In this document: positions 28,066-64,000 of the stretch, piece by piece
Position numbering within the stretch: position 1 is the stretch's first letter
Layout of the letters: the number at the start of each line of letters is the position of its first letter
NCBI GenBank assembly: GCA_963666285.1
Contig: OY762711.1
Length of the DNA: 64,000 bases
Strand: one strand, 5' to 3'
DNA from: Sedimentisphaerales bacterium
GTDB taxonomy: Bacteria; Planctomycetota; Phycisphaerae; Sedimentisphaerales; SM23-30
Translations under genes and position numbers: made by a program
The notes under the pieces: generated by a model
What the model was told of the DNA's origin: nothing
Database searches by the model: none
Seen by the model: only the letters and a program-made list of their open reading frames with translations

Positions 28066-28155
28066 CCGCAAAAAGTTGATTTCAGACTTTTTTGCGGTCT
28101 TTTCAAATTTCTCTCAATTTTCTTATTAAAATCTCAAAAATAAAAGATTTTGAGA
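28066..28155 (-). terminator. two stem-loops downstream of the last gene of the prophage minus-strand arm
   Basis: The stem UCUCAAAA/UUUUGAGA (28132-28155) is followed by UUUUAAU on the minus strand. A second stem, CCGCAAAAA/UUUUUGCGG (28066-28097), could terminate in both directions. Confidence 0.6.
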
Positions 28156-28164
28156 AATATCCAA

Positions 28165-30252
28165 TTATTTCACTGACAGCCTAACATCTCTGGTCATAAC
28201 TTGCAGCTGCTGGGTGTCGCCCTGGAAAGTTACCTTAGCAACTTCCGGGTACTTGGTAGTACCATCAGAATCAACTCCCAACTCAAAAGTTCTGCCAGTT
28301 ATTCGCTCAAGAAGATCACCAGGCTTTATCATGACGCCGCCACTGTCCCACCACAGGAAGTCCAGGACGAACCGGCCAGAGGTGGCCTTGTCCTGATTCG
28401 CCTTACGGATCTGCGAGATGTGGCTATCCAGAGCTGTCTGCAAATTAAGATCGTCTGATGGGTAGCTATCACTGTAGACACTAATTTGTCGAAGCTGAAA
28501 AGGATACCTGTCTGATAAGTCATATACAGATTGATGTTTAAAAAGACTTCCTCCACCATTAGCTGATGGATTACTGATAAGGCGTTGATCCATCTCAACT
28601 GTACAGGTGATCCTACATCTAGTGTGCCAGCCCGCAGTCCAGTCTATTCCTATCAGCTTATCTCTACATAATGACGTCCAATAGTTAAGAGCTATGCCGT
28701 CAAGAGTTCCGCCTGAAATAGTGTCATTGTCAGAAATATAGATATCTGACAGATTTGGCTGTGTGATTAAGATGCCAAGTTCATCCGGCAATGCTTCGAC
28801 GAGTCCATCTAGTTTATGCCAGGTAGCGCCGCCATCAAAAGAGAATTCTAGTTTAACTGGAAGCCTATTACCTTTTGTTGAAAACTCGTTAACATAGCTT
28901 AAACATTGCTTTAAACGCCTAGTAAATGGAGCATAATTCGGCTGTCCGCTAGAGGTAACATAGCTACTACCGATCACAGTAGAAAAATCAAACACATCTC
29001 CACGATTGGCAGCACCTGAATATTTGCCAGATTCGTTCAGGGCCCAACGTCTACCAACAAATGGCCTAAATCTGTCTCCTCTTGAATGATACAGCTGGTA
29101 GAACGTATAAGCATTTGGATCAGTCGCTTGCTTAAGTTCCTTTTCAGTAAAAAATAAATTGCTAATATCCGGAACCAGGTTACTATCTAGCCAGCCTGGC
29201 ACCAACTCTAGTGTAACCTCAAATTTATGTACGCCGCCAAGACCAACCGGCTGGTTGATCACGGGTGTAATATCTTCTGTCATTTCCATTGCGGCTAGAA
29301 TCTTATCGCCACGAGTGATAGCATCAAGGATTGACTCAGAAGCATTAGCCGCATAAAACTCGTGTGAAGTTGAATGCGTACAGGAACTGCCTCTTTTGAA
29401 GAATACTAATTTGTCCCCTCCGGTTGTTTGATCCCAGTCAATTCTGAATGACCAGCCGAGTTGCCTACATATCGTGTCTATTGCTTCCAGCATGTTCATA
29501 CCATCGACGCTAACAGAAGCAAGCTCGGTATCAAAGTCAGAGTGATCTAATCCCATATCAGCAAATGAAGCTGTTAATAAATAAGGAAAATACGAATATG
29601 AGAGGCTAGAACTCTTCAGAATATAATCTATCATCCTGCGTGCAGTCCAATACTCCGCCTGAGACTCAATTGCTGTAAATACCGGCATATGGATGTAATT
29701 ACTATTGTATGTAAATATTTGTGCCGTGTTGACATCTTTATTCGGCCTGCCGCCATCATTAAAAATACACCGCCTCCCAAGTAACCAGGCTGCAGGTGTC
29801 GGTGTAGTTGTTACGGTAGCTAAAGGTACTGTTTTCATATCATTTTGATACGCAGAAGCAAGCCTGGCGTATTGTCCAAAGACAACTTGCGAAACTGCCA
29901 TCAGCCAGCGAATGTCCTGAATATCAGTTGAGAGATGCTGTTTGCAAGAATCCTGGTTGCCGCTGAAACCTCTATCCATCTTAGCAGAGATGCCGGAGAA
30001 TAGAATCGTATTACCAGCTTTGACTCTCACCTTATCACACCTTCCTACAGGTGAGATATGCCAGTCTATCGCCGGAAAGCTTATAACGGCTCTTGACGGC
30101 ATTATACCCATATCATAGACAATAGAGTCTACCTTGCAGCCTGCGATAGGTGTCCACTCTCCCCAGGTAACAGGGCTGCCGGCAACAGCGGTTGCAACCT
30201 CAACTGTCAATGTTGTTGCTATGCGTTCTAAATTATAGCGTTGTGTTGTCAT
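28165..30252 (-). CDS. large virion structural protein (tail/host-interaction candidate)
   Basis: The ORF is 695 aa from ATG 30252, 8 nt after the previous stop; the track's upstream start overlaps. It is the last gene of the structural arm. No motif was recognised. Confidence 0.5.
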   Translation of the reverse strand: MTTQRYNLERIATTLTVEVATAVAGSPVTWGEWTPIAGCKVDSIVYDMGIMPSRAVISFPAIDWHISPVGRCDKVRVKAGNTILFSGISAKMDRGFSGNQDSCKQHLSTDIQDIRWLMAVSQVVFGQYARLASAYQNDMKTVPLATVTTTPTPAAWLLGRRCIFNDGGRPNKDVNTAQIFTYNSNYIHMPVFTAIESQAEYWTARRMIDYILKSSSLSYSYFPYLLTASFADMGLDHSDFDTELASVSVDGMNMLEAIDTICRQLGWSFRIDWDQTTGGDKLVFFKRGSSCTHSTSHEFYAANASESILDAITRGDKILAAMEMTEDITPVINQPVGLGGVHKFEVTLELVPGWLDSNLVPDISNLFFTEKELKQATDPNAYTFYQLYHSRGDRFRPFVGRRWALNESGKYSGAANRGDVFDFSTVIGSSYVTSSGQPNYAPFTRRLKQCLSYVNEFSTKGNRLPVKLEFSFDGGATWHKLDGLVEALPDELGILITQPNLSDIYISDNDTISGGTLDGIALNYWTSLCRDKLIGIDWTAGWHTRCRITCTVEMDQRLISNPSANGGGSLFKHQSVYDLSDRYPFQLRQISVYSDSYPSDDLNLQTALDSHISQIRKANQDKATSGRFVLDFLWWDSGGVMIKPGDLLERITGRTFELGVDSDGTTKYPEVAKVTFQGDTQQLQVMTRDVRLSVK

Positions 30253-30260
30253 AATTAAAT

Positions 30261-34385: not shown

Positions 34386-34865
34386 CTATACCCACACCGC
34401 CACTATATGACCTGTTTCGCTGTTATGCCTGAACGATGATGTACTTTCTCCGCCGACATATTTTAACGGCTCATCCAGATACCATATCGTATCAGCTTCA
34501 GCCGCATCCCATCTTGATACTATTCTGACAATTGATCCAACTTTAAACCAGGGCAGCCAATTTCTGATATCGGTTGCATTAGCGTCATACCCCTCGTATC
34601 CCAATGCTCGGTCGATAGTAATATTAGTTCCATCACCAACCCAGGCACCGGAAGTATTAACCGACGCCTTCTGCACGGTATAATGATCGGCGGTCGCCGA
34701 ATCGTATTCCGGGATCTCGGTTACAATTGCCCATTGGAGAGAAGCCGCCCCTCCGCCTTCAGGACGCACCGCCTGCTCCGCCTGGATCATGATCGCTCCG
34801 TCCGGAGTGCCTGTTCGTTCCAGCGATGCTTTACGTGCTATATTGTCTCGTAGTAATTGACTCAT
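34386..34865 (-). CDS. hypothetical phage structural protein
   Basis: A 159-aa ORF with a 4-nt overlap with the upstream gene, in the structural arm. Confidence 0.5.
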   Translation of the reverse strand: MSQLLRDNIARKASLERTGTPDGAIMIQAEQAVRPEGGGAASLQWAIVTEIPEYDSATADHYTVQKASVNTSGAWVGDGTNITIDRALGYEGYDANATDIRNWLPWFKVGSIVRIVSRWDAAEADTIWYLDEPLKYVGGESTSSFRHNSETGHIVAVWV

Positions 34866-35473
34866 TCGCTCTTCAATACTCCGTTAATCTTATCTTGGAT
34901 CAGAGCTGTAACATCATCAACCTTTTCGAGTGCTGCATCTATCAAGGCTCCGCTGCCGTGAATCGTAACACTCTTGGCAAAAGCAAACAACAATCTAAAC
35001 TTACCTCGTTTCCCATTCCTTCGTCCAAATAATAACTGCCCGCCGCTACGAACAAAAAAACCATCTTCCACCTGGCGAGGTGAGGTAAAGCGAGGTACTC
35101 CGCTCGGCGTAAAATTTTCGCCTGCTGGAATTGCCAGGTATTTACTTTTTTTAGGTGTGATAGTGACAGTCTCATCGCCAAGCAGCCATTTATATTGATC
35201 AACATTACTGCCGTCAGGTATTCCGATTGACACACTGTTAGCATTCTGCTGCCAGCTCATCACAGCTGCCGACAGCATACCTGTCCGCCGTTTGAGATAT
35301 TGACCGCTTAGATATTCAGTTACCAGGTGACCGGCGATCATCTGGCCGCCTTCGGCCAGGCCTTCGCTAGCAGCATCAAAAATAGACCTGCCTCGCCCGA
35401 TCATATCCTGCTCGAACGTCCGCCAGCCACTACCAAGTTCTATCATCAACTGCATCGAAAACCTTAAATACAA
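34862..35473 (-). CDS. neck/tail-completion protein candidate (HK97 gp10 / virion-morphogenesis-like)
   Basis: It lies after the head-tail connector. The ...VSIGIP...ITPKKSKYLAIP... pattern recalls gp10-like proteins; this is weak similarity from memory. Confidence 0.35.
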   Translation of the reverse strand: MYLRFSMQLMIELGSGWRTFEQDMIGRGRSIFDAASEGLAEGGQMIAGHLVTEYLSGQYLKRRTGMLSAAVMSWQQNANSVSIGIPDGSNVDQYKWLLGDETVTITPKKSKYLAIPAGENFTPSGVPRFTSPRQVEDGFFVRSGGQLLFGRRNGKRGKFRLLFAFAKSVTIHGSGALIDAALEKVDDVTALIQDKINGVLKSE

Positions 35474-36063
35474 AAACCTGCGGGGTTCCTAAATAATTCC
35501 AACACTTTCAACACTTCCGGCAAAAACGGCTTCAGCGTATGCAGCTGACTATCGCCACCGTCAAAGCTCTCGCCTTTACTACCGGGATTATTCCGCCTGG
35601 TCAGCTCACAGATGCATTGCTTGATCGCCGCACCACGCAGCGACTCCGGCACCACCTTCTCTCCATCGCCAGGCGTATCACCAGCCGCCGTATACCCGCC
35701 GCGATAGATCACCTGTACGCTATCAGCCTGTTTCGGCCAGTCACAATCAAGTCGCTGTAAAACGCCGTTTAACCCGGCTTTAACAATACGATAATCCGAA
35801 TTTGCCGTAAGGGCAGCAGCACTATCGAAATCATAGGCACAGGACTCCTTAACGCTAACAACAGACACTATCGGCCAGGCATTCACGTGCAGCACATTCC
35901 CCGGCCCCTGGTGATACTCCGTATAATCGCCAACAATAAATTTACGCTGACAATATTCCTCGAACTGTGCCGTCACGCTCTTGGCAATTTCCAGTAGCAC
36001 AGCATCATCGCCGCTGCCGGTTTCGCCCATAATTGTTTTAATTTGTGCTACAGTACAAAGCAT
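35464..36063 (-). CDS. head-tail connector (gp6-like / DNA-packaging QLRG-type) protein
   Basis: The N-terminus MLCTVAQIKTIMGETGSGDDAVLLEIAKSVTAQFEEYCQRKF is typical of gp6-like connector proteins. Confidence 0.55.
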   Translation of the reverse strand: MLCTVAQIKTIMGETGSGDDAVLLEIAKSVTAQFEEYCQRKFIVGDYTEYHQGPGNVLHVNAWPIVSVVSVKESCAYDFDSAAALTANSDYRIVKAGLNGVLQRLDCDWPKQADSVQVIYRGGYTAAGDTPGDGEKVVPESLRGAAIKQCICELTRRNNPGSKGESFDGGDSQLHTLKPFLPEVLKVLELFRNPAGFCI

Positions 36064-36071: not shown

Positions 36072-38225
36072 CTATGGATAAACTGTCTTGACATTAGATT
36101 TATTAAGCTCTGTATTCCCATAATGTGTCACTGAATCCGGATACAAACTTTCTATGTCGTTTGCCGTTAAGCTACCAACGTATAACTGAGGGTCTGCAAT
36201 ATACACTTCGACGTCTTCATTGTCGTACGAACTATTGGAATCAGGGTAGAAGAATATGTCGTCATCTGTTGGGCTGGCTGCACAAAATCCTGTTGCGATA
36301 AATGGAATCCACTGCCCTTTCTTTAGAGCGTAGTAATCACTTCGCTGTGTACGTGATTCGTTGCCTGGTATAAACTGAAGGTGGAAATATGGCGATAGCA
36401 TATCTGGATTAGTATTGGTATCTTCACCTATATAAACCATATAGACAACCGTTACCACTTGTCCTGCATACTCGGCCACTTGTCCTGCTGTTAACTTAAG
36501 CTGGAACCCTGAAGGAAGTATGCCAGATACGCCTGCTTTCTTGCAAGAATTGTATCTTATAGCCTCAGTATATTTATCTTCAGGTATTCCCGAAGTAACT
36601 ATATTCCAGATGGCATAACCATCTAATGTGAAAGTAATATCTTTCCCATCAACAGATATTGTTTCACCCTTTTGGAAAACTCCAGAAAGGGCATCGATAC
36701 GGAATCTACCAACCAAATCACCTCCTGCAAGAGAACCGCTTACAGTCGTGACAGTACCATCGAGAGTCAATGTTGCTCCTGAAGTCTGTCCGGTCATAGT
36801 GTCATTATCTGCAAAGCTATCCGTTCCAGAACCACTAGTAAATGTCATCGTCTGTTCAGAATTATACCCGGAAGTTACAATTTGATCTGCAATCGCGGTA
36901 GCAGTTATTATATTCCGCTTATGTGGGTAATGCCCGCAAATATGACTTGTGATATTGACCCAAACATCACCAGTCTCATCTATGCAACGATCCCCATAAG
37001 GGGGTCGGAGCATGGCAATACATTCTCCATTCCATTCGATGAACGGAGAATATAATGTGTGACTACTGTTGTCCGAATAACGAACGACATCAGTACCTAC
37101 CCGCAAGGCTAAATTGATTTCATCTGTTGCCGGGTCAACGGCATATATCTCAAATACACCATCATTATCCTCTAACCAAGCAGAAGTTCCTGAATAACTG
37201 GCAGTGGACACATAAATTAACCCATTACCGCCAAGAGCAGGGTCAGAATAATGCCCATAAAAACCTGTATTCTTAATATTCTCATCCTTTAGTAGAGTTA
37301 TTGTTCCACCCGGCGAATCAGCAGTATCGCCCATATCAAGCTTATATATCTTCTGAGAATCTCCTCCGCCAAGTAATTGATAAGGTGGAGAATCACTCAT
37401 AAAATAAGCTACAGAGCCATTAGTTGGCAGGTCAACGATTCTCCAATCCTGAGCATTACCGGCAACTATATAATCGGAAATAACTTTGTCACTGGTCCAT
37501 GCGCTTCTTGCTCCTGAACCCAAGGCCCATCGAGTGAACCATGTTGAAGGGGAATCAATCAGACTAGGTATGTCTGCCTCTGCACAGAACAGAATAGAAC
37601 TGGCCTCATCAGTATCACCGGTGTACACATACAGACCTTTGCCCTCAACGTAGGTAGCTCCATGTACATGCGTAACAGCAGCAAGATCAACGCCGAATAG
37701 ATCATCCCAATTACCATTATCACCACAAGCAGCATCGGTCGCAACTGAACTAACGTAAACCCTGTCATGGAAAGCTCCGCCTACATCACCGGGGACAGAA
37801 CGAGCGAAATACAATAGAATCCTACGCTCCGCAGAACCACCTGCACCACCAGTTGTATCTAGGGTTACTGTATGTCTACCTAGATCGACTAAAGACCTGC
37901 CAAGAGAGTTTTTAGCGTCTGGGATGTCCGCAAGTTTCGTAAACGCAGTAGTGCCGTCAGGAGATTTCATAAGACATGAATTGTCTGATGTGTCACCATA
38001 GTTAATGAATAAACCTACTCCGTTAATACCCCATGCTCTGGCTATGTAGTTGTTAGCAACCAGACTTCCACACAAAGTGCCTGTGCCTTCATAGTCTATC
38101 ATCACCAGAGAATTGTTGGAATCTCCTGCATCCCATTTTTCGCCGCAAACTATTGAATCGCCAAACCTGCACCAGGGAGCGTAAATTTTAGAAGCTACAG
38201 TGTCATTAAATGTCCATTGTTTCAT
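36072..38225 (-). CDS. 717-aa structural protein of unknown function, between capsid accessories and connector
   Basis: The ORF is uninterrupted and Gly/Asp/Thr-rich, with a repetitive strand-like pattern that could fit a beta-propeller or fibre. Confidence 0.5.
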   Translation of the reverse strand: MKQWTFNDTVASKIYAPWCRFGDSIVCGEKWDAGDSNNSLVMIDYEGTGTLCGSLVANNYIARAWGINGVGLFINYGDTSDNSCLMKSPDGTTAFTKLADIPDAKNSLGRSLVDLGRHTVTLDTTGGAGGSAERRILLYFARSVPGDVGGAFHDRVYVSSVATDAACGDNGNWDDLFGVDLAAVTHVHGATYVEGKGLYVYTGDTDEASSILFCAEADIPSLIDSPSTWFTRWALGSGARSAWTSDKVISDYIVAGNAQDWRIVDLPTNGSVAYFMSDSPPYQLLGGGDSQKIYKLDMGDTADSPGGTITLLKDENIKNTGFYGHYSDPALGGNGLIYVSTASYSGTSAWLEDNDGVFEIYAVDPATDEINLALRVGTDVVRYSDNSSHTLYSPFIEWNGECIAMLRPPYGDRCIDETGDVWVNITSHICGHYPHKRNIITATAIADQIVTSGYNSEQTMTFTSGSGTDSFADNDTMTGQTSGATLTLDGTVTTVSGSLAGGDLVGRFRIDALSGVFQKGETISVDGKDITFTLDGYAIWNIVTSGIPEDKYTEAIRYNSCKKAGVSGILPSGFQLKLTAGQVAEYAGQVVTVVYMVYIGEDTNTNPDMLSPYFHLQFIPGNESRTQRSDYYALKKGQWIPFIATGFCAASPTDDDIFFYPDSNSSYDNEDVEVYIADPQLYVGSLTANDIESLYPDSVTHYGNTELNKSNVKTVYP

Positions 38226-53769: not shown

Positions 53770-53961
53770 ATGAAAGGACTATTAACAATAACAATATGTA
53801 TCGCACTCGCCTGGCTGCTGGCAGCTATCGGGGTATGGCTGAACATATGTAAAAGAGACTTTACCGTAACCGGCATGATAGTAATCTTATGCCTCATCGG
53901 CATCGCCTGGGACCTGACATGCAGCAAGAGCAGCGACAACCAAGAGACTACTGGCCGATAA
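53770..53961 (+). CDS. small two-TM membrane protein
   Basis: The sequence is MKGLLTITICIALAWLLAAIGVWLN...GMIVILCLIGIAW. It has the same leader as the gene at 52933. Confidence 0.45.
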   Translation: MKGLLTITICIALAWLLAAIGVWLNICKRDFTVTGMIVILCLIGIAWDLTCSKSSDNQETTGR

Positions 53962-54167: not shown

Positions 54168-54309
54168 CACAATCATGCTCGCCTTAAAGAGCGAGCTGAA
54201 TCAGCACATGCGGTCAGGCAATATGCCGAAATCCGAGCAGGTTGTAGTAGATGTAATAGACACAATCGAGCAACAGGTAAAAGCTCAGGTAGAAGCAGCC
54301 GCAGCTTAA
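54133..54309 (+). CDS. possible 58-aa protein (below the ORF-track cutoff)
   Basis: My own translation is MINLELTNDQFNTIMLALKSELNQHMRSGNMPKSEQVVVDVIDTIEQQVKAQVEAAAA. Confidence 0.3.
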   Translation: MINLELTNDQFNTIMLALKSELNQHMRSGNMPKSEQVVVDVIDTIEQQVKAQVEAAAA

Positions 54310-54379
54310 TTCGTGACCATTCGTGGTCAAAAATATTCCCAGCAAGGACGCTGGCATAACTAATAGGAACGGACGCCTT

Positions 54380-54868
54380 ATGTTAGATAAGGACACAATT
54401 GAAGTGAGTGACGATCATCTACTACTGAGCAATAAGCTGGAAGAACATAATATCACAGTCCAGCAGCTTTCAAACATGACAGGGCGTGCCTGCTCAACCT
54501 TATATAGATATTTGATGGGCGGGCAAACTATTCCGTCAATCGTCTGGCGTGTTATATACCAGAAAACCAAAGACCAGGAGATCTTAAAACTTATCACTGG
54601 CGATCTGCCATTAGTAATAGCTGACATGTCGGAGATCCTGGACCCGAATTTCGGTATCCCGGAGCTCCGCAAGATCATGGAGATGCGACAGGCCCAGCTC
54701 GACAGTGAACAGAACATCGTTAACATTCTAGCCGATGGTAAGATAGACGCCAGCGACCGGAAAGAGATCGAGGAATATCGCAAAAACATCAAACAGCAGC
54801 TCCGCACCGAATACCAGATATATCTAACCATCGACCGTTTATACGAAAAGGCTATAAGAAATGCTTGA
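54380..54868 (+). CDS. helix-turn-helix DNA-binding protein upstream of the transposase (Ner/Cro-position)
   Basis: ITVQQLSNMTGRACSTLYRYLMGGQTIP is an HTH. I prefer ATG 54380. The track extension covers TTCGTG repeats. Confidence 0.5.
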   Translation: MLDKDTIEVSDDHLLLSNKLEEHNITVQQLSNMTGRACSTLYRYLMGGQTIPSIVWRVIYQKTKDQEILKLITGDLPLVIADMSEILDPNFGIPELRKIMEMRQAQLDSEQNIVNILADGKIDASDRKEIEEYRKNIKQQLRTEYQIYLTIDRLYEKAIRNA

Positions 54869-55283
54869 ACAATATAATGACATTAACATACCTTGTCCAG
54901 TGGAAGATTGCGACGGGCACCTGACAGAGCCGCTCATCTGGAACAATGAAATAATTACAGGCACCGCCCCAACCCGCCGGGTTTTCGGCTCTTGTAATTG
55001 TTGCGGCTGCGACATCAACCTGGAGCAATATCAGGCCCACCACCGCTGGTTCATCAGCCGCTATTATATCAGCGGCGAGATGGACGGCACCGGTCAGATG
55101 CCAAGCGACACTACCTGGCATGATATTCAGCCGGTCCCGAAGACCGCTGTGCTGATCCCGGTCGAAGCTTTCGAGCGGGTAGAACGTCAGCGTGAGCTTA
55201 CCAAAGACCAGATCACAAATCTTTTGGACACCTTTAAACAGACATTAACAGACATTCAAAGACTAATCAAAAATAATTTATAA
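54861..55283 (+). CDS. Cys-rich hypothetical protein
   Basis: CPVEDCDGH...CNCCGC suggests possible zinc binding, followed by a C-terminal coiled coil. Confidence 0.4.
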   Translation: MLEQYNDINIPCPVEDCDGHLTEPLIWNNEIITGTAPTRRVFGSCNCCGCDINLEQYQAHHRWFISRYYISGEMDGTGQMPSDTTWHDIQPVPKTAVLIPVEAFERVERQRELTKDQITNLLDTFKQTLTDIQRLIKNNL

Positions 55284-55381
55284 CGGAGATAAAATGAGCC
55301 ATCAGCGAAATATCAAATCAGCCCCGCCCCAGGCGGCACCTTCCCTGATGCCTTATCCCTTATCCCTTATCCCTGTATAAC

Positions 55382-57376
55382 ATGAAATACTTAACCGTAA
55401 AACAAGCAGCCGAAAAGCTGAAATTGAACGAAGGCCACATACGCAGGCTATGTGCGTCCGGCGACCTCCTGGGAGCAGCACGCAAGGGTAAAAGCTGGCA
55501 GATCCCGGTATCTGCTCATCCGGATCTGCGCGGAGCCCTGGCACCGGCAGTCAAAGACGATCCAGAAGAACTGCTCAAGGTACCGCTGCCGAAACGTCAG
55601 CAGGCAACAGAGCGGCTCGGCCTGTTAAAACAGATGGAGAAATATATCGGCGGCTATCTAAACCACGGCGGCAACCGTACAGACGCTATCGCCTGTTTCG
55701 CTGACATGCAAGGCTGCTCGGTCCGGTCGCTTACCAGATGGTCCAAGCGATATCGAGAGCAGGGCATACTTGGCCTTGTTGATGCCAGGGGCGGCAGAAC
55801 CGACGACGATTCAATTAGTCCGGAAGCCTGGGATATATTCAAGGACATGTGGCTCGACCAGCGTCGACTGAGCGTACCGACCTGCTATAAGAATTTGGTA
55901 TATCTTAACCACTCGCAGCAGCAAAACTGGCAGCTCCCATCCGAGCGAAACATGTATCGTCTCATCCATGAGCGGATCCCGATGCCGGCCCAGGTATTGC
56001 ATCGGGAGGGCATGGAAGCCTACAACGCCAAGTGTGCCCCTTACATAATAACAGACAGAGAGGCGATCGAACCGGGCAGCGTCTGGATCGGCGACCATCA
56101 TCAATGTAACTGCTGGGTGCGAAATCAGGGCCGATGGATAAGGCCATGGCTAACAGCTTGGGAAGATATGCGTAGCCGTGCATTGGTCGGCTATTGCGTT
56201 ACAGCCAGCCCTAACCAATCAACCATCATGCTCGCCTTCAGGAAAGGCTGCCAGGACTACGGCCCGCCCGAATCGGTAAAGATCGATAACGGTAAAGATT
56301 ACGATTCCCAGATGTGGACCGGCACCACAAAAAAACAACGCCAGAAAAAACGCGGCAAGGTTTTGGACGACCAGCAATGCCAGGCGATCATCGGTTTGTA
56401 CGCTATGATGAATATCGACGTAAGCTTCTCGATTCCTTACCACCCTCAGAGCAAGGCAATCGAGCGGTTCTTCGACAGCTTCGACCGTCAGCTCATCAAG
56501 TCATTTGACACTTATTGCGGCAAAGGCACCCACGCCAAACCGGACACTCTCAACGACTACCTGAAAACGGACAAGGCCATCGCCGCCGCCGACGATCTCG
56601 AGAGCTTCGCCGCCAAGGTCGACCGATATCTAAAGGTATATAACTCTCAGCCGCACTCCGCGAACAAAGGCCAAACCCCGGCATCTGTCATGTCAACCCG
56701 TCAGAGCCGCCGTGTTATAGCCGACGGAACAATGGACCTTCTCTTACAGGTCTGGTCTGGCGAACTGACAATTGGCAAAAACGGCGTCAAGTTCGAAGGC
56801 AACTGGTACGGCCAGTTCAACCCTGAACTATTAAGACGTCAAGGCCAGAAAGTTCGGGTAAGCTACGATCCAGACGACATCACAGAGGTCCGGGTCTTCA
56901 CCAAGGATTTCGAATTTATCACAACCGCAACCCAGCACGAACTGGAGCAGTATGGCAAAGTACACCAGTCAAGCTTGCGAGAAGCTATGAAGCAGAAACG
57001 CAAAGCTGCTAAGGATATGAAGTCATATCGCAAGACAACCAGGATCGCCAACATGCGGCTATCAGATCTGACAATCGAAGCAGCAGAGCACGCCGCTCAA
57101 CTAACAGAGCAAGATCAGCAGCAGCGAACACCACAGCCGCCAACTATCAAGCCGGTCCAGACCCCGCTCGACAACGCGGTAACAGATGTTAAACGTAAAG
57201 AACAACAACAGCAGCTACGGAAAGCTGTCGGAGCAGACACCGTCTCGGCTATCGATCTGGATTTAGATAGCCTGACCCAGCCGGTCAGCTCCTCGGAAAA
57301 CTCGTTTAGCTTTAACCTATCGGCTTTAGAGCCGAACGAAGAGCCGACCATAAGGCTTTTCGAAAATGGACAATAA
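55382..57376 (+). CDS. Mu A-like DDE transposase
   Basis: An N-terminal MerR/excisionase-type HTH is present (LTVKQAAEKLKLNEGHIRRLCASG). The rve-type DDE core is WIGDHHQCN (D), KIDNGKDY (D), HPQSKAIERFF (E). A C-terminal Mu-transposase-like beta-barrel region follows. Confidence 0.85.
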   Translation: MKYLTVKQAAEKLKLNEGHIRRLCASGDLLGAARKGKSWQIPVSAHPDLRGALAPAVKDDPEELLKVPLPKRQQATERLGLLKQMEKYIGGYLNHGGNRTDAIACFADMQGCSVRSLTRWSKRYREQGILGLVDARGGRTDDDSISPEAWDIFKDMWLDQRRLSVPTCYKNLVYLNHSQQQNWQLPSERNMYRLIHERIPMPAQVLHREGMEAYNAKCAPYIITDREAIEPGSVWIGDHHQCNCWVRNQGRWIRPWLTAWEDMRSRALVGYCVTASPNQSTIMLAFRKGCQDYGPPESVKIDNGKDYDSQMWTGTTKKQRQKKRGKVLDDQQCQAIIGLYAMMNIDVSFSIPYHPQSKAIERFFDSFDRQLIKSFDTYCGKGTHAKPDTLNDYLKTDKAIAAADDLESFAAKVDRYLKVYNSQPHSANKGQTPASVMSTRQSRRVIADGTMDLLLQVWSGELTIGKNGVKFEGNWYGQFNPELLRRQGQKVRVSYDPDDITEVRVFTKDFEFITTATQHELEQYGKVHQSSLREAMKQKRKAAKDMKSYRKTTRIANMRLSDLTIEAAEHAAQLTEQDQQQRTPQPPTIKPVQTPLDNAVTDVKRKEQQQQLRKAVGADTVSAIDLDLDSLTQPVSSSENSFSFNLSALEPNEEPTIRLFENGQ

Positions 57377-58526
57377 CAACAACAACGACAATGAGCTTGA
57401 ATATCTAAAAAAAGGATTGTCATTAGAGCAGAATCTAATTTTGGAAAGGATTCCAAAAGTGTTCACAGAAGAAAACACAGCAAAAGCAATAGCCAACATA
57501 AGATCGTTTATGAAGGACCATTCCTTCACCAACAAGCAGCTCGCCGACCGTTGCGGCTTCAGCCAGACAACAGTCAGCCAACTAATCAACGGCAAATATC
57601 CAGGCGACACACCAAAAGCGTTAACAACTATTATTAAGTTCATGAACGCTCACTGTCGCAATAAGCTGCACCACAACGAAATGCCCGAATATGTCGAGAC
57701 CTCAGTCGCTCGTGAGATCGGAGCACTCATCACCAACACCACATCCTTCAGCCAGAGCGAAGGCAAAATCGGCCTGGTTATTGGAGATGGCGGCCACGGC
57801 AAAACCCACTGCCTGCAAGCCTGGTGCAAAGTCAACCCGCACAACTATTATATCAGGCTGCATTCCTGCATGACCAACAAGGATATCATGGTAGCGATCG
57901 CTAAAACAGTCGGCAGCGATTATTCCGGCAGCATCGCTTACATAATAGATAAGCTCGCAGCGGAACTGGCCGACCGGTTTGCTGTCATAATTATTGATGA
58001 GGCCAGCAACCTCAAGGTCAAAACTCTTGACCTGCTCCGCCAGGCTATATGCCTGGAATGCGGCTGCCCGATGATTCTGTCAGGCAACGCCGCTCTAATA
58101 AAAACAATCCACAAAGATTCAGCTCGCAGCGGCTACGAATCAATCGATCAGTTTAACAGCAGAGTTATGCGAACCTTGAACCTTGACCTGGCCGCCTCAA
58201 CCAGCACAGACCCGAACACAGGTCTCTATACCGAAAAGGATATTATCGATTTATATCAATATCAGGGTATCGGACTGGCCAAAGATGCCGTCGATACCCT
58301 GCGTAAGATCTGCCAGACCCCACACTCCGGCAGATTGCGTGTCTGTGCCGATATCATCAAAGCCCTGCACACCAGCCCAGACATATACAAAGCTCAACTG
58401 ATCACAGGCCAAAACATAATCACAGCTATTCGCATGCTGCAGCTTCCATTCGCCGACCGGCTGCCGGTCACAGTTGTCAAACCAAAACATCAAACATCCA
58501 GCCAGCAGGCCAAAGCCACAGCATAA
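57366..58526 (+). CDS. Mu B / TniB-like AAA+ transposition ATPase with N-terminal HTH
   Basis: FTNKQLADRCGFSQTTVSQLINGKY is an HTH. Walker A is GDGGHGKT and Walker B is VIIIDEAS. The gene overlaps the transposase by 11 nt. Confidence 0.8.
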   Translation: MDNNNNNDNELEYLKKGLSLEQNLILERIPKVFTEENTAKAIANIRSFMKDHSFTNKQLADRCGFSQTTVSQLINGKYPGDTPKALTTIIKFMNAHCRNKLHHNEMPEYVETSVAREIGALITNTTSFSQSEGKIGLVIGDGGHGKTHCLQAWCKVNPHNYYIRLHSCMTNKDIMVAIAKTVGSDYSGSIAYIIDKLAAELADRFAVIIIDEASNLKVKTLDLLRQAICLECGCPMILSGNAALIKTIHKDSARSGYESIDQFNSRVMRTLNLDLAASTSTDPNTGLYTEKDIIDLYQYQGIGLAKDAVDTLRKICQTPHSGRLRVCADIIKALHTSPDIYKAQLITGQNIITAIRMLQLPFADRLPVTVVKPKHQTSSQQAKATA

Positions 58527-58538
58527 CAGAGGTTTAAC

Positions 58539-59033
58539 ATGCCATTAAACTATAAAAAAGTACAGCTCTTACAAATCGCTATGAAAGCAGCCGGCCTGCG
58601 TAAACCGGAACGTACCGAAGCGAGCGAAGCTCAGTACCTGTTCTACCTGGCCCAGTTCAAAGACAGTAAGGGCAGCCCCATCACCAGCAGCAAATATCTG
58701 TCGAACGCCCAGATGGACACCATCCTGGAAACATGCGAGGAGCTCGGCTGGCGAAATCCAAACAAGAGCCGCCGCAACTACCACGGCGAGATCAGCCAGG
58801 CAATGATAGATGGTATCAATGCCCTGGCCGGAGATCTCGGCTGGCAGCCTCACCAGCTATCAGGCATGGTCCGGAGGATGACCAGGCAAACCCAATCAGA
58901 TCCCAGCGAGCTGACAGTTGCCGAAGGCCGCAAGGTAATCGAAGCAATGAAAGCTATGCTCAAGAGACACAACCCGGACATCACCGGCAATAACTTAACC
59001 GACATTCAACAGAAATTTGAATTTAATTCATAA
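58539..59033 (+). CDS. GemA / Mu gp16-like (DUF1018) protein
   Basis: KKVQLLQIAMKAAGL...SSKYLSNAQMDTILETCEELGW matches the gp16 family pattern as I remember it. The gene lies after the B-like gene. Confidence 0.55.
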   Translation: MPLNYKKVQLLQIAMKAAGLRKPERTEASEAQYLFYLAQFKDSKGSPITSSKYLSNAQMDTILETCEELGWRNPNKSRRNYHGEISQAMIDGINALAGDLGWQPHQLSGMVRRMTRQTQSDPSELTVAEGRKVIEAMKAMLKRHNPDITGNNLTDIQQKFEFNS

Positions 59034-59047
59034 CGAAAGGAAGTATT

Positions 59048-59797
59048 ATGGGCATAAATGAACGCAGAAAAACAAAATATACGCCATCACCTTGGCTAAT
59101 AGCTGAAGATGTATTCGATAAAGAAAAGTTTTTAGATTTTTGTGAGAGCGTTTGGGATGCTACTCAATCTAACGGGAACCTTTCAGATACATTTAAGGTG
59201 ATACAAACTTCTGAAGAGACAGGTTCTCTTACTATAGCTGTGATTGGAAATGGACCTCAATCAGAAGGAAACTCAAAGCTAATTGCTTCAGCTCCGGAAC
59301 TTCTAAGAATGCTAGATAAAACATCTGCCTACATTGCAAGAGGTAGTGATCCTGCATCGCTTCTTGATGAGATTGCAAAAGTCATGAGTAAAGCAACTGG
59401 CGTAACTATCACACTTCATCGTAATGCACCATCTGGTCAGGTCGATTTAGATTCATTAGAATGCTTTCTGGATGAGCTGGGTCGCGGACTGTTAAACACT
59501 ATTTGCAATGTTATCAATTCCCTCGTTAACAGTGCAGCAAATAATAAAATACACCACGCTGTCAAAGTTGCCGACAACTGGGAAAGTCCAGATATTAAAG
59601 CAATCATCAACTACAACCGAGAGAGCGACATCGAAAAGAATCTAAGCGAAATCAGCCAGAATATCAGAATCCACTGGAAAAATTATTTCGAACACAACTA
59701 TAAAAACATAATCAGTAAATATCCCGGCCTGACAGACAAATCGGTAGCGTCAGACCAGACATTAGATACTGGCTCTAGTAACTGTCCGGATGAATAA
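59048..59797 (+). CDS. hypothetical phage protein
   Basis: A 249-aa ORF with no recognised motif. Confidence 0.45.
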   Translation: MGINERRKTKYTPSPWLIAEDVFDKEKFLDFCESVWDATQSNGNLSDTFKVIQTSEETGSLTIAVIGNGPQSEGNSKLIASAPELLRMLDKTSAYIARGSDPASLLDEIAKVMSKATGVTITLHRNAPSGQVDLDSLECFLDELGRGLLNTICNVINSLVNSAANNKIHHAVKVADNWESPDIKAIINYNRESDIEKNLSEISQNIRIHWKNYFEHNYKNIISKYPGLTDKSVASDQTLDTGSSNCPDE

Positions 59798-59873
59798 ATC
59801 CGTGGTTCAAAGATTAAATTATTCGTGTCTATTTGTGTCCATCCGTGGTTCAAACAGACAAGGAGTAAATGAA

Positions 59874-60011
59874 ATGATAACCTCAAAAGACTATCATATA
59901 AAACCGGCCACCGCCGACCAGACCAAAAACACCCAGCAAGCCGCCGCTCGCCGGGTATTACTCGAACATAACCGCCAGAAGCAACAGCGTAAAACTGGCC
60001 GTGAGCGATAG
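59874..60011 (+). CDS. possible 45-aa basic protein
   Basis: ATG 59874 lies after AAGGAG. The upstream part of the track ORF is made of TCCGTGGT repeats. Confidence 0.3.
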   Translation: MITSKDYHIKPATADQTKNTQQAAARRVLLEHNRQKQQRKTGRER

Positions 60012-60099
60012 CGAACACCTTAACTATTAGTTTTTAGTTATTAACTATTAACTTGCCAGGCGTGATGGACCACGCCGCAGCATAGAACGGAGTCTTATT

Positions 60100-60603
60100 A
60101 TGGCAAAACGCACCAAATCTAAAACCGACCTGATCCAGATCGAAACCTTCGATCAGGCTGACAAGCTATTAAAAAGAGCTAGCGAACTACAAGCCTCTAT
60201 CGATCAGGCAAACAACGAACTGACCGCCATGATCGACCAGCTAAAATCCCATACCAAAGATACAGTCGGGCCTCTCCAGCTTGAGATCGACAAGATTACT
60301 AAATCCCTTCAGGCATACTGCACCGCCAACAAACAAGAATTTGGTAACGCCCAGAGCAAAAAACTAAACCACGGAAAGTTAGGTTGGCGCAGATCTTCCA
60401 GTATCACCGTCAGAAATGACACTTTAGACCTCATTAAACAGCTATTCAAACCTGCCTTAAAAAAGGTTTGTATCGTTGTTAAAGAGACCGTCAGCAAAGA
60501 TGCCCTGGCAGATCTAACCGATGACCAGCTCACCGACATCAACGCCAGGCGTAACCACAAAAACATATTTTTCATCGAACCGGAAAAGGTTGAGATTAAA
60601 TAA
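60100..60603 (+). CDS. gam: Gam-like host-nuclease inhibitor
   Basis: An N-terminal coiled coil (ADKLLKRASELQASIDQANNELTAMIDQLK) is present, with ...KLNHGKLGWRRSSSITV... and a Mu Gam family-like length and layout. Confidence 0.65.
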   Translation: MAKRTKSKTDLIQIETFDQADKLLKRASELQASIDQANNELTAMIDQLKSHTKDTVGPLQLEIDKITKSLQAYCTANKQEFGNAQSKKLNHGKLGWRRSSSITVRNDTLDLIKQLFKPALKKVCIVVKETVSKDALADLTDDQLTDINARRNHKNIFFIEPEKVEIK

Positions 60604-60872
60604 TGGACAAACACGAAATAGCAGCAAAACTATTTCCCCAGCTCGAAGAGTTGCGAGAAATCATCGAAACCAGAATCGCGGTAGTATCGGACAATTATCC
60701 ATGCGAGCCGACCTGTTTTTGGATGGTCATCCGCAACAAAGAGCTTATCTGTGTCTGGTCCAGGAATCTGGCAAAAGATGATAAAAAGATAATCAGACTC
60801 TGGGACCCGGCCAAAGGATTGACCTGGCACCAATGGTACCAGCTATGGCTGGCCTGCCATGAATATTTATAA
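60603..60872 (+). CDS. hypothetical phage protein
   Basis: An 89-aa ORF with an ATAATG junction with gam. Confidence 0.4.
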   Translation: MDKHEIAAKLFPQLEELREIIETRIAVVSDNYPCEPTCFWMVIRNKELICVWSRNLAKDDKKIIRLWDPAKGLTWHQWYQLWLACHEYL

Positions 60873-60955
60873 TTAAGCGTGAGCGGAGCGAACACCGCCC
60901 CTAACACCTAACACCTAATACCAAATACCTTTTATAGCGACAAAGGATTGAAGCT

Positions 60956-61336
60956 ATGAAACACTCAAAACCAATCACAACCCCATCACAGCAATCCGAA
61001 CTGCTGCACATCCTGCAGGCAGCCGCCGAGCCTGCGCCCGCAATCGACCTGGCCAACACCGCAGGTCTGTCCGGATCCCACGAATCCAAACGCCGCAAGG
61101 TACGTGATCTCATCAAAAAACTCCGAGACAATGGCCACTGGATAGTTGCGACGATCCAGGGCGGCTACTGGCTCACTAAAGACAAATATTTATGGCAGCA
61201 ATACAACGAGCATAGATCAATCGACGCCAAGGTTATCCTGGCTGATATCTCCCGCCGCAAACAGGCTCAGCGTGACCAGCCTCAGGGCATGCTCTTCGAC
61301 GTAACTAATTTAAACGCTATAGCAGGAGGATTTTAA
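60956..61336 (+). CDS. winged-helix-like DNA-binding protein (middle/late regulator candidate)
   Basis: SKRRKVRDLIKKLRDNGHWIVATIQGGYWL shows a wHTH-like pattern. The gene lies just before the tail genes. Confidence 0.35.
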   Translation: MKHSKPITTPSQQSELLHILQAAAEPAPAIDLANTAGLSGSHESKRRKVRDLIKKLRDNGHWIVATIQGGYWLTKDKYLWQQYNEHRSIDAKVILADISRRKQAQRDQPQGMLFDVTNLNAIAGGF

Positions 61337-61551
61337 TGGCAGGTCATATCCAAACAGATTACATGCACATTGATGGTACCCCGATCATTCTATCACAAGG
61401 CTTAAATCCAAATAGCGGCGAATGGCGTGCATACAAAAAGAACAACCTTACAAAGATCGCGGCCATCAAGCCCGGCACAGTTGATTTCTGTAATCGGCAG
61501 ATGGCAGAAGGCAAAAGCAGAGTCATTATCCCTAAAGGAGCGAAGAAATGA
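61336..61551 (+). CDS. hypothetical phage protein
   Basis: A 71-aa ORF with start/stop overlaps on both sides. Confidence 0.35.
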   Translation: MAGHIQTDYMHIDGTPIILSQGLNPNSGEWRAYKKNNLTKIAAIKPGTVDFCNRQMAEGKSRVIIPKGAKK

Positions 61552-62042
61552 GTAATATATATACTGATTGTGCCAACGCCGCCATCGCCGCCGCAACAGC
61601 CCTGGAATTCACCGAAGGCGTTGCACTCTTTAAGACCGTCGAATTCTGGAACTCACAGTTTGACGCTTCTGTCGGCGGCATGAGCAGCTTCGACCGACTC
61701 GCTCCGTTTTTCTTTATCGAACCGGCAGCAGACGGCGGCAGGCGTGCCGGTGACGGAGATCTGAACGCGCCGGTAAACTTAAATATTATGATCGGCCAGA
61801 GCATGACCGGCAGAAGCGATAACGTCAAGGTCGGTGATGCCTATAACCCCGGCATCTTTGACATGCTCGAAAAGGTTATGCAAACCTTCGACATTTGGCA
61901 TCCAAACAGCGTCGATGGCTTCAGCGGTATTACTGTAGATGAATTCCGCTATCAGGCATCCTACGAACAGGCCGACGAAAAATGTAAACGGGCATTATAC
62001 CAGATAACTTTCACTAGTAACTACATAGTACCAAGGAGTTAA
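61548..62042 (+). CDS. tail-completion/terminator candidate
   Basis: A 164-aa ORF directly upstream of the tube-like gene. The call rests on position only. Confidence 0.3.
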   Translation: MSNIYTDCANAAIAAATALEFTEGVALFKTVEFWNSQFDASVGGMSSFDRLAPFFFIEPAADGGRRAGDGDLNAPVNLNIMIGQSMTGRSDNVKVGDAYNPGIFDMLEKVMQTFDIWHPNSVDGFSGITVDEFRYQASYEQADEKCKRALYQITFTSNYIVPRS

Positions 62043-62047
62043 ATTAA

Positions 62048-62941
62048 ATGGCTAACCAAAGAACCCACAAGGCCCAGGCCGCTACTATCAACGGAGTTTC
62101 GGCAGGCGGCCTTACCACCGTTAACATAACTAAAGGATACGACAACGTTATCTCGTCCGAAGCTGACGGACTTGAGATCCCGCTCGTCGATAAAGAGATC
62201 CAGTTCTGTCGCGGCAGCGTTACCACCCAGGACATCACCCAGGCAATCAATCTTTTAACCGGCGAAGTAGGCACCTTCGTCTTTTATGAAATGGAATCAG
62301 GTGTAGCTACTTATGTCAAGCATACCATCACCAACCCGGTCATCCACCAGGTAAGTTTTAATATCGCCAAGGGCGGCTACGCTACCTGCAGCTTTAATTT
62401 CGAATGCAAAGCCGCCGACGCCACCAAAGGTTTCGCCGACATGCATACTGTCCTACGCGAACAGGCATCCCCGGATTATGTCGCAGCTAATCGCGGCGGC
62501 CACCGTGTCAAAACTCTGGCCTTATCTACTGTCAACATCCTGCATGTTACCGGCATTTCATTCTCACTGGCTCTGGAACTCAGCCGGGCCTGTAACGATA
62601 GCGATATTGGTTACACCGTTGTCGATGCTATCCTGCAGGGCTATCAGCCGGGCGGTAGTATCGCTTTCGAAGATTCCGGCCCAACCGCCGCCCAGGACTT
62701 ATCAGCCGACATCCTGTCAGCTGCTCGCGGCAGCCTGGTAGCTACAATCGCAATGGCCCAGGGAGCCACTGACAAAGTTATCACAATCGCCGGCGTCGAG
62801 TCCACCCAATGCAGCCAAAGCTCCTCTTCGTCCGGCGGCTTTACTACTTATGAAGGTAGTTATATAGTAACAAACAACACCATGACGCCGTTAACCCTGG
62901 CAGGTACCAACAAGATCATCACTATCGCTAACGCGGCATAA
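62048..62941 (+). CDS. major tail (tube) protein candidate
   Basis: A 297-aa Thr/Ala/Gly-rich ORF with two similar halves, immediately upstream of the tape measure gene. Confidence 0.4.
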   Translation: MANQRTHKAQAATINGVSAGGLTTVNITKGYDNVISSEADGLEIPLVDKEIQFCRGSVTTQDITQAINLLTGEVGTFVFYEMESGVATYVKHTITNPVIHQVSFNIAKGGYATCSFNFECKAADATKGFADMHTVLREQASPDYVAANRGGHRVKTLALSTVNILHVTGISFSLALELSRACNDSDIGYTVVDAILQGYQPGGSIAFEDSGPTAAQDLSADILSAARGSLVATIAMAQGATDKVITIAGVESTQCSQSSSSSGGFTTYEGSYIVTNNTMTPLTLAGTNKIITIANAA

Positions 62942-62953
62942 TAAGGTAATATT

Positions 62954-64000
62954 ATGGGCAAAGACCTAAACATTGAAATAACCGCAACCGGCGTTAATGT
63001 CACCAACGAAAAATTAAAAGGGCTCGGCAAGACCGGCAAGAAGGTCGGCGAAGAAATCCAGCAAGGCAGCCAAAAAGGCAAAGAAGGTTTAGAAGGACTT
63101 GACCAGCAAAGCAAAAAAACAGAGAGAGGTCTAGGTTCATTTGTCAAATCTATAGGAGACTTTAAGACCAAAATCTTTTCTGCAGTTGGTATCATTACCA
63201 CCCTGATCGGCATACTCAAAATATGGCTTGACTATCTTAACAAAATCGCCGCCGCCCAGCGTGAAATCGCCGAACAGGCTAAAAGCCTGGATTCCGCTGC
63301 CAAAGCTCTTGCCTCCCAGGCCGGTATCATGAGCACCGAAGGGGGGATCGCCGCTTCCAGGGAACAAATAATTAAAATAATGCAGGGCGGCAACCTTTCA
63401 GACGTCGGGCTCGCCGAAGGCATCGCCGTTTCCACCCATTCAGCTTTTGGCACAAAAGGCCAGGCTTTGACCGACTCGCAGGTTGGTATCGCTTCAACTG
63501 TAGCTGACTTTGCTCAGCGTAAAGGCATCAGTGCCTCCGGAGCTGACCAGCTCTTCAAAGTCTTAGCCGCTATGGATGTCTCCGACCAGGCGTCAGCTCA
63601 ATCGGCTATCCAAAAGATATCCTCCGTCCAGCAAGCATCCAAAGCCAAAACTTTCGAGCAGTTCATTACCGGCGGTGTAAAATCTCTAATCCCGGCCATG
63701 GCAATGGGAGCCTCCCCGGAGCGAGCCCTGGCAGATTTTGCAACTACCCTTAACGCTTCATCCTCCGCCGAAGAAGGTGCCACAACGGCCAGCCAGCTCT
63801 CCAGGTTATTACAAAGCCCTGACGCGATCGCCGGTATGACAGCAGGCACCGGCCTCTCTGAAGTACAATTCCGCAACCTGCCCTACGATCAAAAGATGGG
63901 CATGCTCGACCAATTTCTTAAAGGAAACTCTTCTACCGGTGAAGGGCAGATGTACCTGCAAAGTTTAGGCCTGACCGAAGAGCAAATGAAGGCAGCCGTA
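62954..64000 (+). CDS. tail tape measure protein, N-terminal part (runs off the window end)
   Basis: My own translation from ATG 62954 is MGKDLNIEITATGVNVTNEKLKGLGKTGKK...IITTLIGILKIWLDYLNKIAAAQREIAEQAKSLDSAAKALASQAG... It is Ala/Gln-rich and helical, with a TP901-type core feel. There is no stop before 64000. Confidence 0.7.
   Translation, partial: MGKDLNIEITATGVNVTNEKLKGLGKTGKKVGEEIQQGSQKGKEGLEGLDQQSKKTERGLGSFVKSIGDFKTKIFSAVGIITTLIGILKIWLDYLNKIAAAQREIAEQAKSLDSAAKALASQAGIMSTEGGIAASREQIIKIMQGGNLSDVGLAEGIAVSTHSAFGTKGQALTDSQVGIASTVADFAQRKGISASGADQLFKVLAAMDVSDQASAQSAIQKISSVQQASKAKTFEQFITGGVKSLIPAMAMGASPERALADFATTLNASSSAEEGATTASQLSRLLQSPDAIAGMTAGTGLSEVQFRNLPYDQKMGMLDQFLKGNSSTGEGQMYLQSLGLTEEQMKAAV

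Follow-up and report, generated by a model that had tools for sequence, protein, structure and literature searches.

The 64,000-nucleotide stretch analysed here (the window; GenBank assembly GCA_963666285.1, contig OY762711.1, positions counted from its first letter) comes from a Sedimentisphaerales bacterium with a genome of 6.15 Mb. The region from 27999 to about 65.55 kb is very probably one Mu-type transposable siphovirus prophage, complete to all appearances and with a relocated tail block, and this prophage belongs to a large undescribed family associated with Planctomycetota. As far as gene order tells, its rare feature is the relocation of the tail tube and tape-measure protein (TMP) block, and not the divergence of its two arms. 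An earlier note on this DNA had regarded the divergent early and late arms as the oddity, but such arms are the rule among about 30 relatives and typical of the B3 type (PMC8705779).

Gene calls are based on an open reading frame (ORF) listing and on Pfam and PHROG scans of the window. The window was extended to 65401 by the Logan contig L001 (run SRR34447564), which is 100% identical where they overlap, and separately assembled Logan contigs of the same run are identical to the window over 50956-65401. Related loci were found by scanning IMG/VR, JGI metagenomes and GTDB genomes with alignments of the portal, hub, tube and MuA. Their synteny was compared in a tblastn map, with roughly 45 large loci mapped in detail, and folds were modelled with AlphaFold (AF2) and compared by Foldseek. 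Labels of P and a number (such as P126, P164, P121 and P203) denote conserved proteins, and X300, X465 and X247 are the genes that follow Gam/P126 in canonical relatives. The capsid and the TMP, each used as a single-protein query against viral contigs, gave no match, nor did exact-protein look-ups of P164, MraZ and the hub (two start codons each for mraZ and the hub). A few loci from the MuA scan are a separate collinear Mu type: the metagenome contigs L130, L139, L148, L153, L155 and L162 have related MuA and MuB proteins (43-49% identity), and their protease and capsid genes lie on the same strand.

About 150 related loci were recovered, and the named host records among them are Pirellulales, Phycisphaerales, Anaerohalosphaeraceae, Sedimentisphaerales and 'Planctomycetes' metagenome-assembled genomes (MAGs). 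The canonical early strand reads MuA, MuB, GemA, Gam, P126, X300..X465, X247. The other strand, in about 30 loci, reads P82..P227..P99, gp27, TerL, portal, protease, capsid, P151.., adaptor, P203, P164, tube, TMP, P121, hub. The window departs from this layout, with P164, tube, TMP and P121 behind P126, the hub still at the end of the head arm, and the X genes absent (profiles of X300, X465 and X247 gave no match to window positions 1-65401, all with E > 1). After Gam/P126, X300 is found in 30 loci and the tube in one other locus, L058. A tail block in the position of the X genes is seen only in the window, in a sister prophage described below, and in L058. The relocated block is as follows.

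61336-64000, + strand: relocated tail block (71-aa ORF, P164, tube, TMP-like gene), running off the window
61548-62042, + strand: P164, named by its conserved position ahead of the tube; no family match
62048-62941, + strand: double-domain tail tube, 297 aa, by AF2 fold
62954-64564, + strand: TMP-like gene, 536 aa, ending past the window (via L001); by position, length and homology to the post-tube gene of relatives
64631-64996, + strand, outside the window: P121, named by its conserved position after the TMP; no family match

The 62048-62941 product is, on its model, a fused double-domain tube of the T5 pb6/P74-26 type. The AF2 model, built from 53 homologues, has a predicted local distance difference test (pLDDT) score of 84, and in Foldseek it matches the tail tubes of T5 (pb6), DT57C, P74-26 and SH-Ab15497 with E-values of 3e-9 to 2e-6. 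The template-modelling (TM) scores are 0.51-0.56 over about 300 columns to 8xan_A, 7qg9_G and 8ed0_A (probability 1.00). The Pfam family Phage_tube_2 is weak in the window tube (E 0.004) and is recorded for several homologues. The earlier proposal of a tube-like gene after the early genes is thus borne out by a tail-tube fold. The tape-measure label is backed by the position and length of the gene and by its weak sequence similarity to the tape-measure-sized gene after the tube in relatives, while the tail-completion label once given to 61548-62042 reflects position, with no family match. In the run of genes from P126 to the tube, each start codon touches or overlaps the stop codon before it. 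The assignment of tail genes to the + strand holds for the tube and TMP block; the hub (710 aa) and a cassette of 159 and 1374 aa lie on the head strand (-).

MuA, MuB, GemA and Gam are on the + strand, where the earlier note had placed them, and Pfam agrees. The MuA-type DDE transposase has Mu end-binding helix-turn-helix (HTH) domains and a MuB-like AAA+ protein directly downstream, which are the marks of saltoviruses. The MuB-like label is given for the AAA+ domain and the position after MuA. The nearest isolated phage by MuA is Bacillus phage BalMu-1, with about 27% identity at most, so the element is far from anything characterised.

55382-61336, + strand: transposition and replication block (MuA, MuB-like, GemA, 249 aa, 73 aa, Gam, 89 aa, P126)
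55382-57376, + strand: MuA (Mu-transpos_C E 1.7e-13, DDE_2 3e-11, HTH_Tnp_Mu_2 3e-8; Pfam)
57366-58526, + strand: MuB-like AAA+ protein (AAA_22 E 1.5e-12) with an N-terminal Cro/C1-type HTH, overlapping the end of MuA
58539-59033, + strand: GemA (Pfam)
60100-60603, + strand: Gam (Pfam E 1e-27)

The left phage terminus lies at 27999, and not at about 28100 as earlier estimated. The 5'-TG at 27999-28000 opens a 25-nt terminal site (terminus region 27999-28051), which reads outward TGGCCAACTTGGTTGGCGGACTACA, and the host flank is CCAAT (27994-27998). The motif TGGCCAWYT is found in the 65.4 kb at 28018, 28023, 28043 and 65391 only. These copies are candidate MuA-binding sites, and together with the left TG they give the inverted subterminal arrangement that is seen at both termini of the sister, next to TG...CA ends. 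A comparison of the window left end with 64997-65401 gave weak co-linear matches only (blastn E 0.18), and the window ends were resolved only through the sister.

The sister prophage lies in a closed 4.59-Mb genome (loci L164 and L165). Its tube and hub are each 60-62% identical to those of the window, its phage proteins in general are 48-71% identical, and the gene order is the same on both arms. P126 abuts P164, the tail block closes the early arm and the hub closes the head arm. The sister termini read ...GGCGAACTACA followed by GTAAG and ...GTCATATTACA followed by CTTAC. Since CTTAC is the reverse complement of GTAAG, a 5-bp duplication surrounds a 35,400-bp unit that encloses both arms, and the ends of this unit are 5'-TG...CA-3'. 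CTTAC preceded by CA would be expected about 0.05 times in the 870 nt searched. Aligning the window with the sister from the hub stop to mraZ reveals about 105 nt of conserved sequence ending at ...ACTACA, and the same 25-mer architecture is found at the termini of relatives. The sister terminus lies 737 nt past P121. By homology to L164, the right terminus of the window prophage is predicted about 150 nt past 65401, at about 65.55 kb and about 1.5 kb beyond the window. The prophage would then measure about 37.5 kb and could not accommodate a second head module.

These results support the earlier view of one Mu-like prophage with two arms. The check proposed for it, TG...CA ends with a 5-bp duplication, gives a positive result in the sister (GTAAG), and the left end of the window has its TG at 27999. 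A second complete head module to the right would have pointed to two prophages; judging by the sister, none follows. Small features also lie near the right end. A hydrophobic 42-aa ORF points inward at 65100-65230 (L001 3444-3572, -), and by eye only its DNA looks conserved in the sister (L164 about 13180-13290).

Two adjacent or nested elements, that is, a tail-less Mu-like prophage at 28-61.4 kb and a remnant tail module from about 61.5 kb, are a highly improbable alternative. P164, tube, TMP and P121 are on the head strand in about 45 relatives, so their position in the window is anomalous. Between P126 and P164 lie 215 bp that hold only an unsupported 71-aa ORF, and a Logan contig breaks at 61628-61657. 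Such breaks are uninformative, since others fall inside genes (29043, 34432 and 44036), and a single Logan contig of run SRR34447564, assembled separately, spans the P126-71 aa-P164 junction. In the sister no gap separates P126 from P164, and a single 5-bp duplication with TG...CA ends surrounds both arms. TGGCCAWYT is absent from 28.05-65.39 kb, and no gene is duplicated, each conserved gene being single-copy in the window. The differently rearranged Pirellulales MAG L058 also joins the two kinds of genes independently; its Gam overlaps P203 in codons, followed by P164, tube, TMP, P121 and hub. The Logan breaks had also been considered as phage ends or as the borders of an invertible segment. 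This was rejected, as breaks occur inside genes as well and the 3.8-kb contig does not have inverted repeats at its ends.

The ends of these prophages are of two unlike types, and their positions bear on the rearrangement of the arms. The type A end (...ACTACA; 25-mer ...CNACTACA) is the X/early-arm end in the canonical loci L092, L002 and L123, and is at the hub end in the window and the sister. A type-A-like terminus also lies about 600 nt after MuB in L154, a collinear relative outside the synteny map. The type B end (...GTCAYRTTACA) is on the hub side of the canonical L057 and at the tail-block end of the sister. These positions imply that, compared with canonical relatives, the head and early arms are each inverted relative to the unlike ends in the lineage of the window; the tail block retains its link to the type-B end. 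A general terminal motif could not be located in most relatives searched, so that few flanks were scorable for mraZ. In IMG/VR contig 3300030616_000061, one end has no inverted repeat in common with the other; the X-side terminus lies 127 nt inside one end, and no type-B terminus was recognised at the other, in about 900 nt after the hub gene.

Two relatives show other features of the arms. L144 carries a P164 paralogue at 10401-10781 (30% identity, E 1e-10) among the early-arm X genes of a canonical layout, and inverted homologous sequences on both arms of this kind could mediate arm-swapping recombination. At L081 7106-19400 the hub end meets the X end convergently: P121 and hub run toward a gap of about 660 nt, and from the other side come the X genes, preceded by P126, Gam, MuB and MuA. 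No convincing inverted repeat was found at this hub/X junction. L081, a viral contig, may be a circular or tandem form or a further rearranged variant, or its assembly may be chimeric.

Several points weigh against a single active and simply rearranged prophage. Lysis genes, a repressor and a Mor/C homologue were not identified in the prophage with Pfam or PHROG, so its activity is putative. The right terminus of the window and its target duplication are outside the available sequence, which stops at 65401. The contrast of end types comes from few termini, with two for type B. A single inversion cannot turn the canonical order into that of the window, because the hub stays with the head arm. 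The recurrent position near mraZ is also unexpected for a freely transposing Mu-like phage.

26976-27452: mraZ (85% identical to a PF02381 MraZ)

mraZ lies with its start codon 546 bp from the left terminus of the window. The earlier note had set the left boundary within about 500 bp of the mraZ operator, at the border of the dcw promoter region; the mraZ neighbourhood stands, with the terminus 546 bp upstream. In the sister, mraZ begins 465 bp past the hub-side terminus; behind it come an ftsL-sized gene, rsmH and a LysM gene, and this order is shared with the window. The host proteins are 85% (MraZ), 66% (RsmH) and 45% (LysM protein) identical between the two genomes. L123, with the canonical layout, has its type-A terminus 115 bp upstream of an mraZ whose product is 54% identical to that of the window. 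Thus mraZ is found at all three evaluable type-A flanks, and in each it is transcribed away from the phage, a coincidence that would be very improbable if a Mu-type phage inserted at random. It was not seen at other family loci, though hardly any other type-A flank is long enough. The L092 metagenome contig, for example, stops 31 nt past the terminus, and family contigs end at or just past termini. Tentatively, these data suggest targeted insertion or ancient vertical inheritance: either a non-random placement of the type-A end upstream of mraZ, by the promoter of the gene cluster for division and cell wall, in fixed orientation and in distantly related planctomycete hosts, like a Tn7-type safe harbour, or vertical carriage since before the hosts diverged, with all genes intact.

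Targeted insertion would mean that the family, or at least its step of lysogenic integration, chooses the stretch ahead of mraZ as its site, with the type-A end turned toward the gene. Tn7, a DDE transposon with a MuB-like AAA+ target selector, inserts in this manner at attTn7 downstream of glmS. The three flanks of 546, 465 and 115 bp speak for it, as do the chance of a random landing beside mraZ (about 1e-4 per event), the N-terminal Cro/C1-type HTH of MuB, and L123, which has the opposite internal layout and yet the same end toward mraZ. The sample is three, and the window and sister may be one event. The distance to mraZ varies (115 versus about 465-546 bp), and the 5-bp flanks are unlike (GTAAG, ATTGG and GACGT). 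Contigs that stop at or just past the termini fit many flanks, i.e. non-specific transposition. On the hub side of L055-L058 and L060, the nearest 5.7-6 kb contain no mraZ, though this is the opposite end. Like Tn7, the prophage is found repeatedly beside one conserved housekeeping gene with a fixed end orientation; unlike Tn7, it has no TnsD-like selector identified in the window and its mraZ distances vary, so that targeting is a hypothesis. On this evidence targeted insertion is possible but somewhat doubtful.

Ancient vertical inheritance comes nearer to an even chance without reaching it. It would require one ancestral insertion upstream of mraZ, kept by selection (domestication or benefit) and rearranged internally in place. 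The window and the sister share locus, orientation and the rare architecture, their phage identities (48-71%) are in the range of those of the flanking host proteins (85%, 66% and 45%), all ORFs are intact in both, and Mu-type prophages do not excise. A fixed locus common to two genomes would also suit a domesticated element such as a gene transfer agent, and in this case MuA, MuB and the end sites are intact, which favours an active transposon over a domesticated relic. The cargo in both variable slots has been exchanged between the window and the sister. The immediate flanks, like the candidate duplication, cannot be aligned, the right flank of the window is outside the available sequence, and L123 needs a much older or an independent insertion.

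The early arm starts from a divergent intergenic region, where the arms part at 50.9-51.07 kb in the manner of the bidirectional Pseudomonas phage B3 (PMC8705779). The earlier note had the arms diverging from a ribbon-helix-helix (RHH) switch; the divergence is confirmed at this position, and the RHH protein is not, the 59-aa ORF giving a NikA-like match of E 0.038. The region is presumed to be the lysis-lysogeny switch.

50913-51450: divergent intergenic region and first + strand small ORFs, where the arms part in the window and in about 30 relatives
51070-51267, + strand: 65-aa ORF
51271-51450, + strand: 59-aa ORF with a weak NikA-like (RHH-fold) match
51957-55283, + strand: early small genes including P74 and P181, conserved in relatives
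53463-53687, + strand: P74, 74-aa stand-alone MuA I-gamma-type HTH protein (HTH_Tnp_Mu_2, PF09039, E 5e-9)

P74 is kept upstream of MuA in relatives and is a candidate end- or operator-binding regulator. P126 follows Gam in more than 30 loci, and the late genes located on the early arm always come after it. It may be an activator, and is a positional candidate for the role of Mor/C; the Mor/C middle/late activators themselves have no Pfam or PHROG match in the prophage.

TYCGTGGT has 13 matches against 2.2 expected, 12 of them in 42.6-60.4 kb. The earlier claim that both arms share these elements is thereby upheld, and the distribution supports a common regulon for 42.6-60.4 kb. The motif is part of a longer intergenic hairpin element on both arms, in which ATYCGTG repeats flank a hairpin (CCCTGCACC..GGTGCAAGGG). 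In L058, three ATCCGTG cores (as CACGGAT) are intergenic at 15225-15265, just after the hub gene.

47041-47131, 52839-52929 and 53680-53770, intergenic, both arms: ATYCGTG hairpin element
48077-48116, 49501-49540 and 59825-59862: shorter related copies of the element
51812-51882, 52464-52504, 55315-55385, 60871-60941 and about 65030-65085 (L001), + arm: hairpin and 7-nt repeat elements

The last of these are found on the + arm only, and in each a GC-rich hairpin precedes 3-4 tandem copies of a 7-nt repeat (CCTAACA/CCTTATC). Such elements precede the start codons of the 151-aa gene, MuA and P126 by 0-100 nt, and one also follows P121; a role as a translational or antitermination signal is possible.

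The late arm runs on the - strand. The gp27-like, TerL, portal-MuF, protease, capsid and connector genes were correctly assigned to this strand, as Pfam and PHROG confirm. Lysis genes are expected in 46426-50912.

46426-50912, - strand: upstream late arm (P99, P117, P227, four small ORFs, P268, P82), order kept in relatives; no family match
39635-46419, - strand: head module (capsid, S78 protease, portal-MuF, TerL, 90-aa ORF, gp27-like; Pfam)
45856-46419, - strand: gp27-like (Mu gp27; Pfam/PHROG)
44241-45569, - strand: TerL (Pfam/PHROG)
41828-44233, - strand: HK97-type portal (PF04860) fused to MuF (Pfam/PHROG)
41043-41828, - strand: S78 protease (Pfam/PHROG)
39635-41056, - strand: HK97-type capsid (Pfam/PHROG)
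38227-39533, - strand: small head-completion/connector genes of 129, 125, 66 and 151 aa (P151, phrog_5707)
36072-38225, - strand: 717-aa protein in the variable slot between P151 and the adaptor
35464-36063, - strand: head-tail adaptor (phrog_442, E 3e-16)
34862-35473, - strand: P203
34386-34865, - strand: 159-aa protein of the tail-tip cassette, variable slot after P203
30261-34385, - strand: 1374-aa protein of the tail-tip cassette, variable slot after P203
28165-30297, - strand: P710, 710-aa baseplate hub/tail-tip protein (Tal/gp44/VgrG-like; AF2 pLDDT 79)

P710 has full-length orthologues, 33-40% identical, in more than 15 loci, and in canonical relatives its gene comes after TMP and P121. 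Its model matches the Mu gp44 baseplate hub (E 9e-9), and also VgrG, the T5 tail tip (pb3) and Tal in Foldseek. A sequence search of the PDB gave no match for the tube, the 1374-aa and the 717-aa protein, and chance-level matches only for the hub (E 0.27-0.96). P203 and the adaptor are kept in more than 30 relatives, where they are directly upstream of P164 and the tube, and P151 is conserved in 46 loci.

The slots of variable content in the family are two, between P151 and the adaptor (0.6 to 3.7 kb across relatives; 717 aa in the window) and between P203 and P164 (159 and 1374 aa in the window). The 717-aa protein has no homologue in Pfam, PHROG, the PDB or the related loci, no whole-database search having been run. 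The pair of 159 and 1374 aa has no homologue in about 160 family loci. Homologues of the 1374-aa protein elsewhere have 1200-1440 aa. In L166, from another genome, a homologous pair of 173 and 1366 aa are the last tail genes of an integrase-type siphophage prophage, and its 173-aa protein is 39% identical to the 159-aa protein (E 7e-31). By these homologies the pair is an acquired tail-tip/host-specificity cassette. Homology of the 159-aa protein to X247 was tried and rejected (BLAST E 0.17; no support from a profile search). The three very large structural genes that had been proposed on the - strand have fared differently: the 710-aa product has a hub fold and the 1374-aa product a tail gene homologue, and the 717-aa product is without a homologue. 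In the sister the slot after P203 (L165 5556-10008) has five genes, including MptE-like, Methyltransf_24 and Glyco_transf_9, which suggests a glycan-modifying rather than a fibre cassette.

The element would integrate and replicate by MuA/MuB transposition from end sites of the TGGCCAWYT type. The central switch would drive two divergent arms, an early arm with the small genes, MuA, MuB, GemA, Gam and P126, and a late arm that in the family runs from gp27-like, TerL, portal-MuF, protease, capsid and connectors, normally on to P164, tube, TMP, P121 and hub. In the lineage of the window, the four genes P164, tube, TMP and P121 lie at the end of the early arm, in place of the X genes, and the hub is left at the end of the head arm behind the acquired tail-tip cassette. 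Late expression of the relocated tail genes would come from the promoter used by the X genes in relatives, and virions would be assembled from the products of both arms. CCAAT is predicted to follow the right terminus of the window.

Mu-type phages are classically held to transpose at random and to have a conserved gene order. The Leptospiraceae transposable prophages NN and TG2 have a head block (TerS-TerL-portal-protease-capsid-adaptors) apart from the tail module (PMC8705779). Like the window prophage, they have a MuA-type transposase, an ATPase and gam, opposite arms from a regulatory region, a tail module at the genome end, a size of about 37-39 kb and no recognisable Mor/C (PMC8705779). 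They differ in being of the myovirus type, with sheath and baseplate wedge genes, whereas the window prophage is of the siphovirus type with a T5/P74-26-like double-domain tube, a hub gene split from the tube and TMP, and a host of another phylum. The Leptospiraceae layout is also stable within each group, and that of the window is a rare variant inside a well-sampled family. The Burkholderia phages BcepMu and KS10 have an early/left region that is inverted relative to Mu, and transposase-binding repeats at both ends (PMC2628397). They are myoviruses with head and tail genes on one strand, and the similarity is limited to family domains. Head/tail separation in Leptospiraceae and the inverted early region of KS10 give the rearrangement in the window a precedent. 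With B3, D3112 and Mu, the window prophage shares MuA/MuB/GemA/Gam, a gp27-like protein, a MuF domain, TG...CA ends and, to judge by its sister, the duplication of 5 bp; it differs in its HK97-type portal (PF04860) fused to MuF, in having late genes on both arms, and in having no invertible fibre segment.

The host region to the left of the dcw genes has two copies of a group II intron, at 15082-15767 and 22235-22920 (-), with Rfam scores of 112-116 bits (group-II-D1D4-6) and 52-56 bits (Intron_gpII). A 520-aa ORF at 20700-22262 (-) lies beside the second copy. The GC skew is strongly negative (-0.27 to -0.43) over - strand ORFs of the host region at 1-3000 and 12000-15000, and Rfam finds no rRNA there. 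The window has no tRNA, and no Rfam family falls within the prophage.

The family represents a large and unstudied group of transposable siphophages in Planctomycetota, with late genes on both arms, a T5-like fused tube and two cargo slots. The window prophage shows that a tail-tube module can change arms, and that both arms can be inverted with respect to the unlike ends, while every ORF stays intact, and this rearrangement helps to define the real synteny constraints in these phages. Most surprising, though few genomes bear on it, is that a place next to mraZ recurs. If targeting is true, it would provide a testable case of site selection by a MuA/MuB machine, and would set the prophage directly against the dcw promoter.

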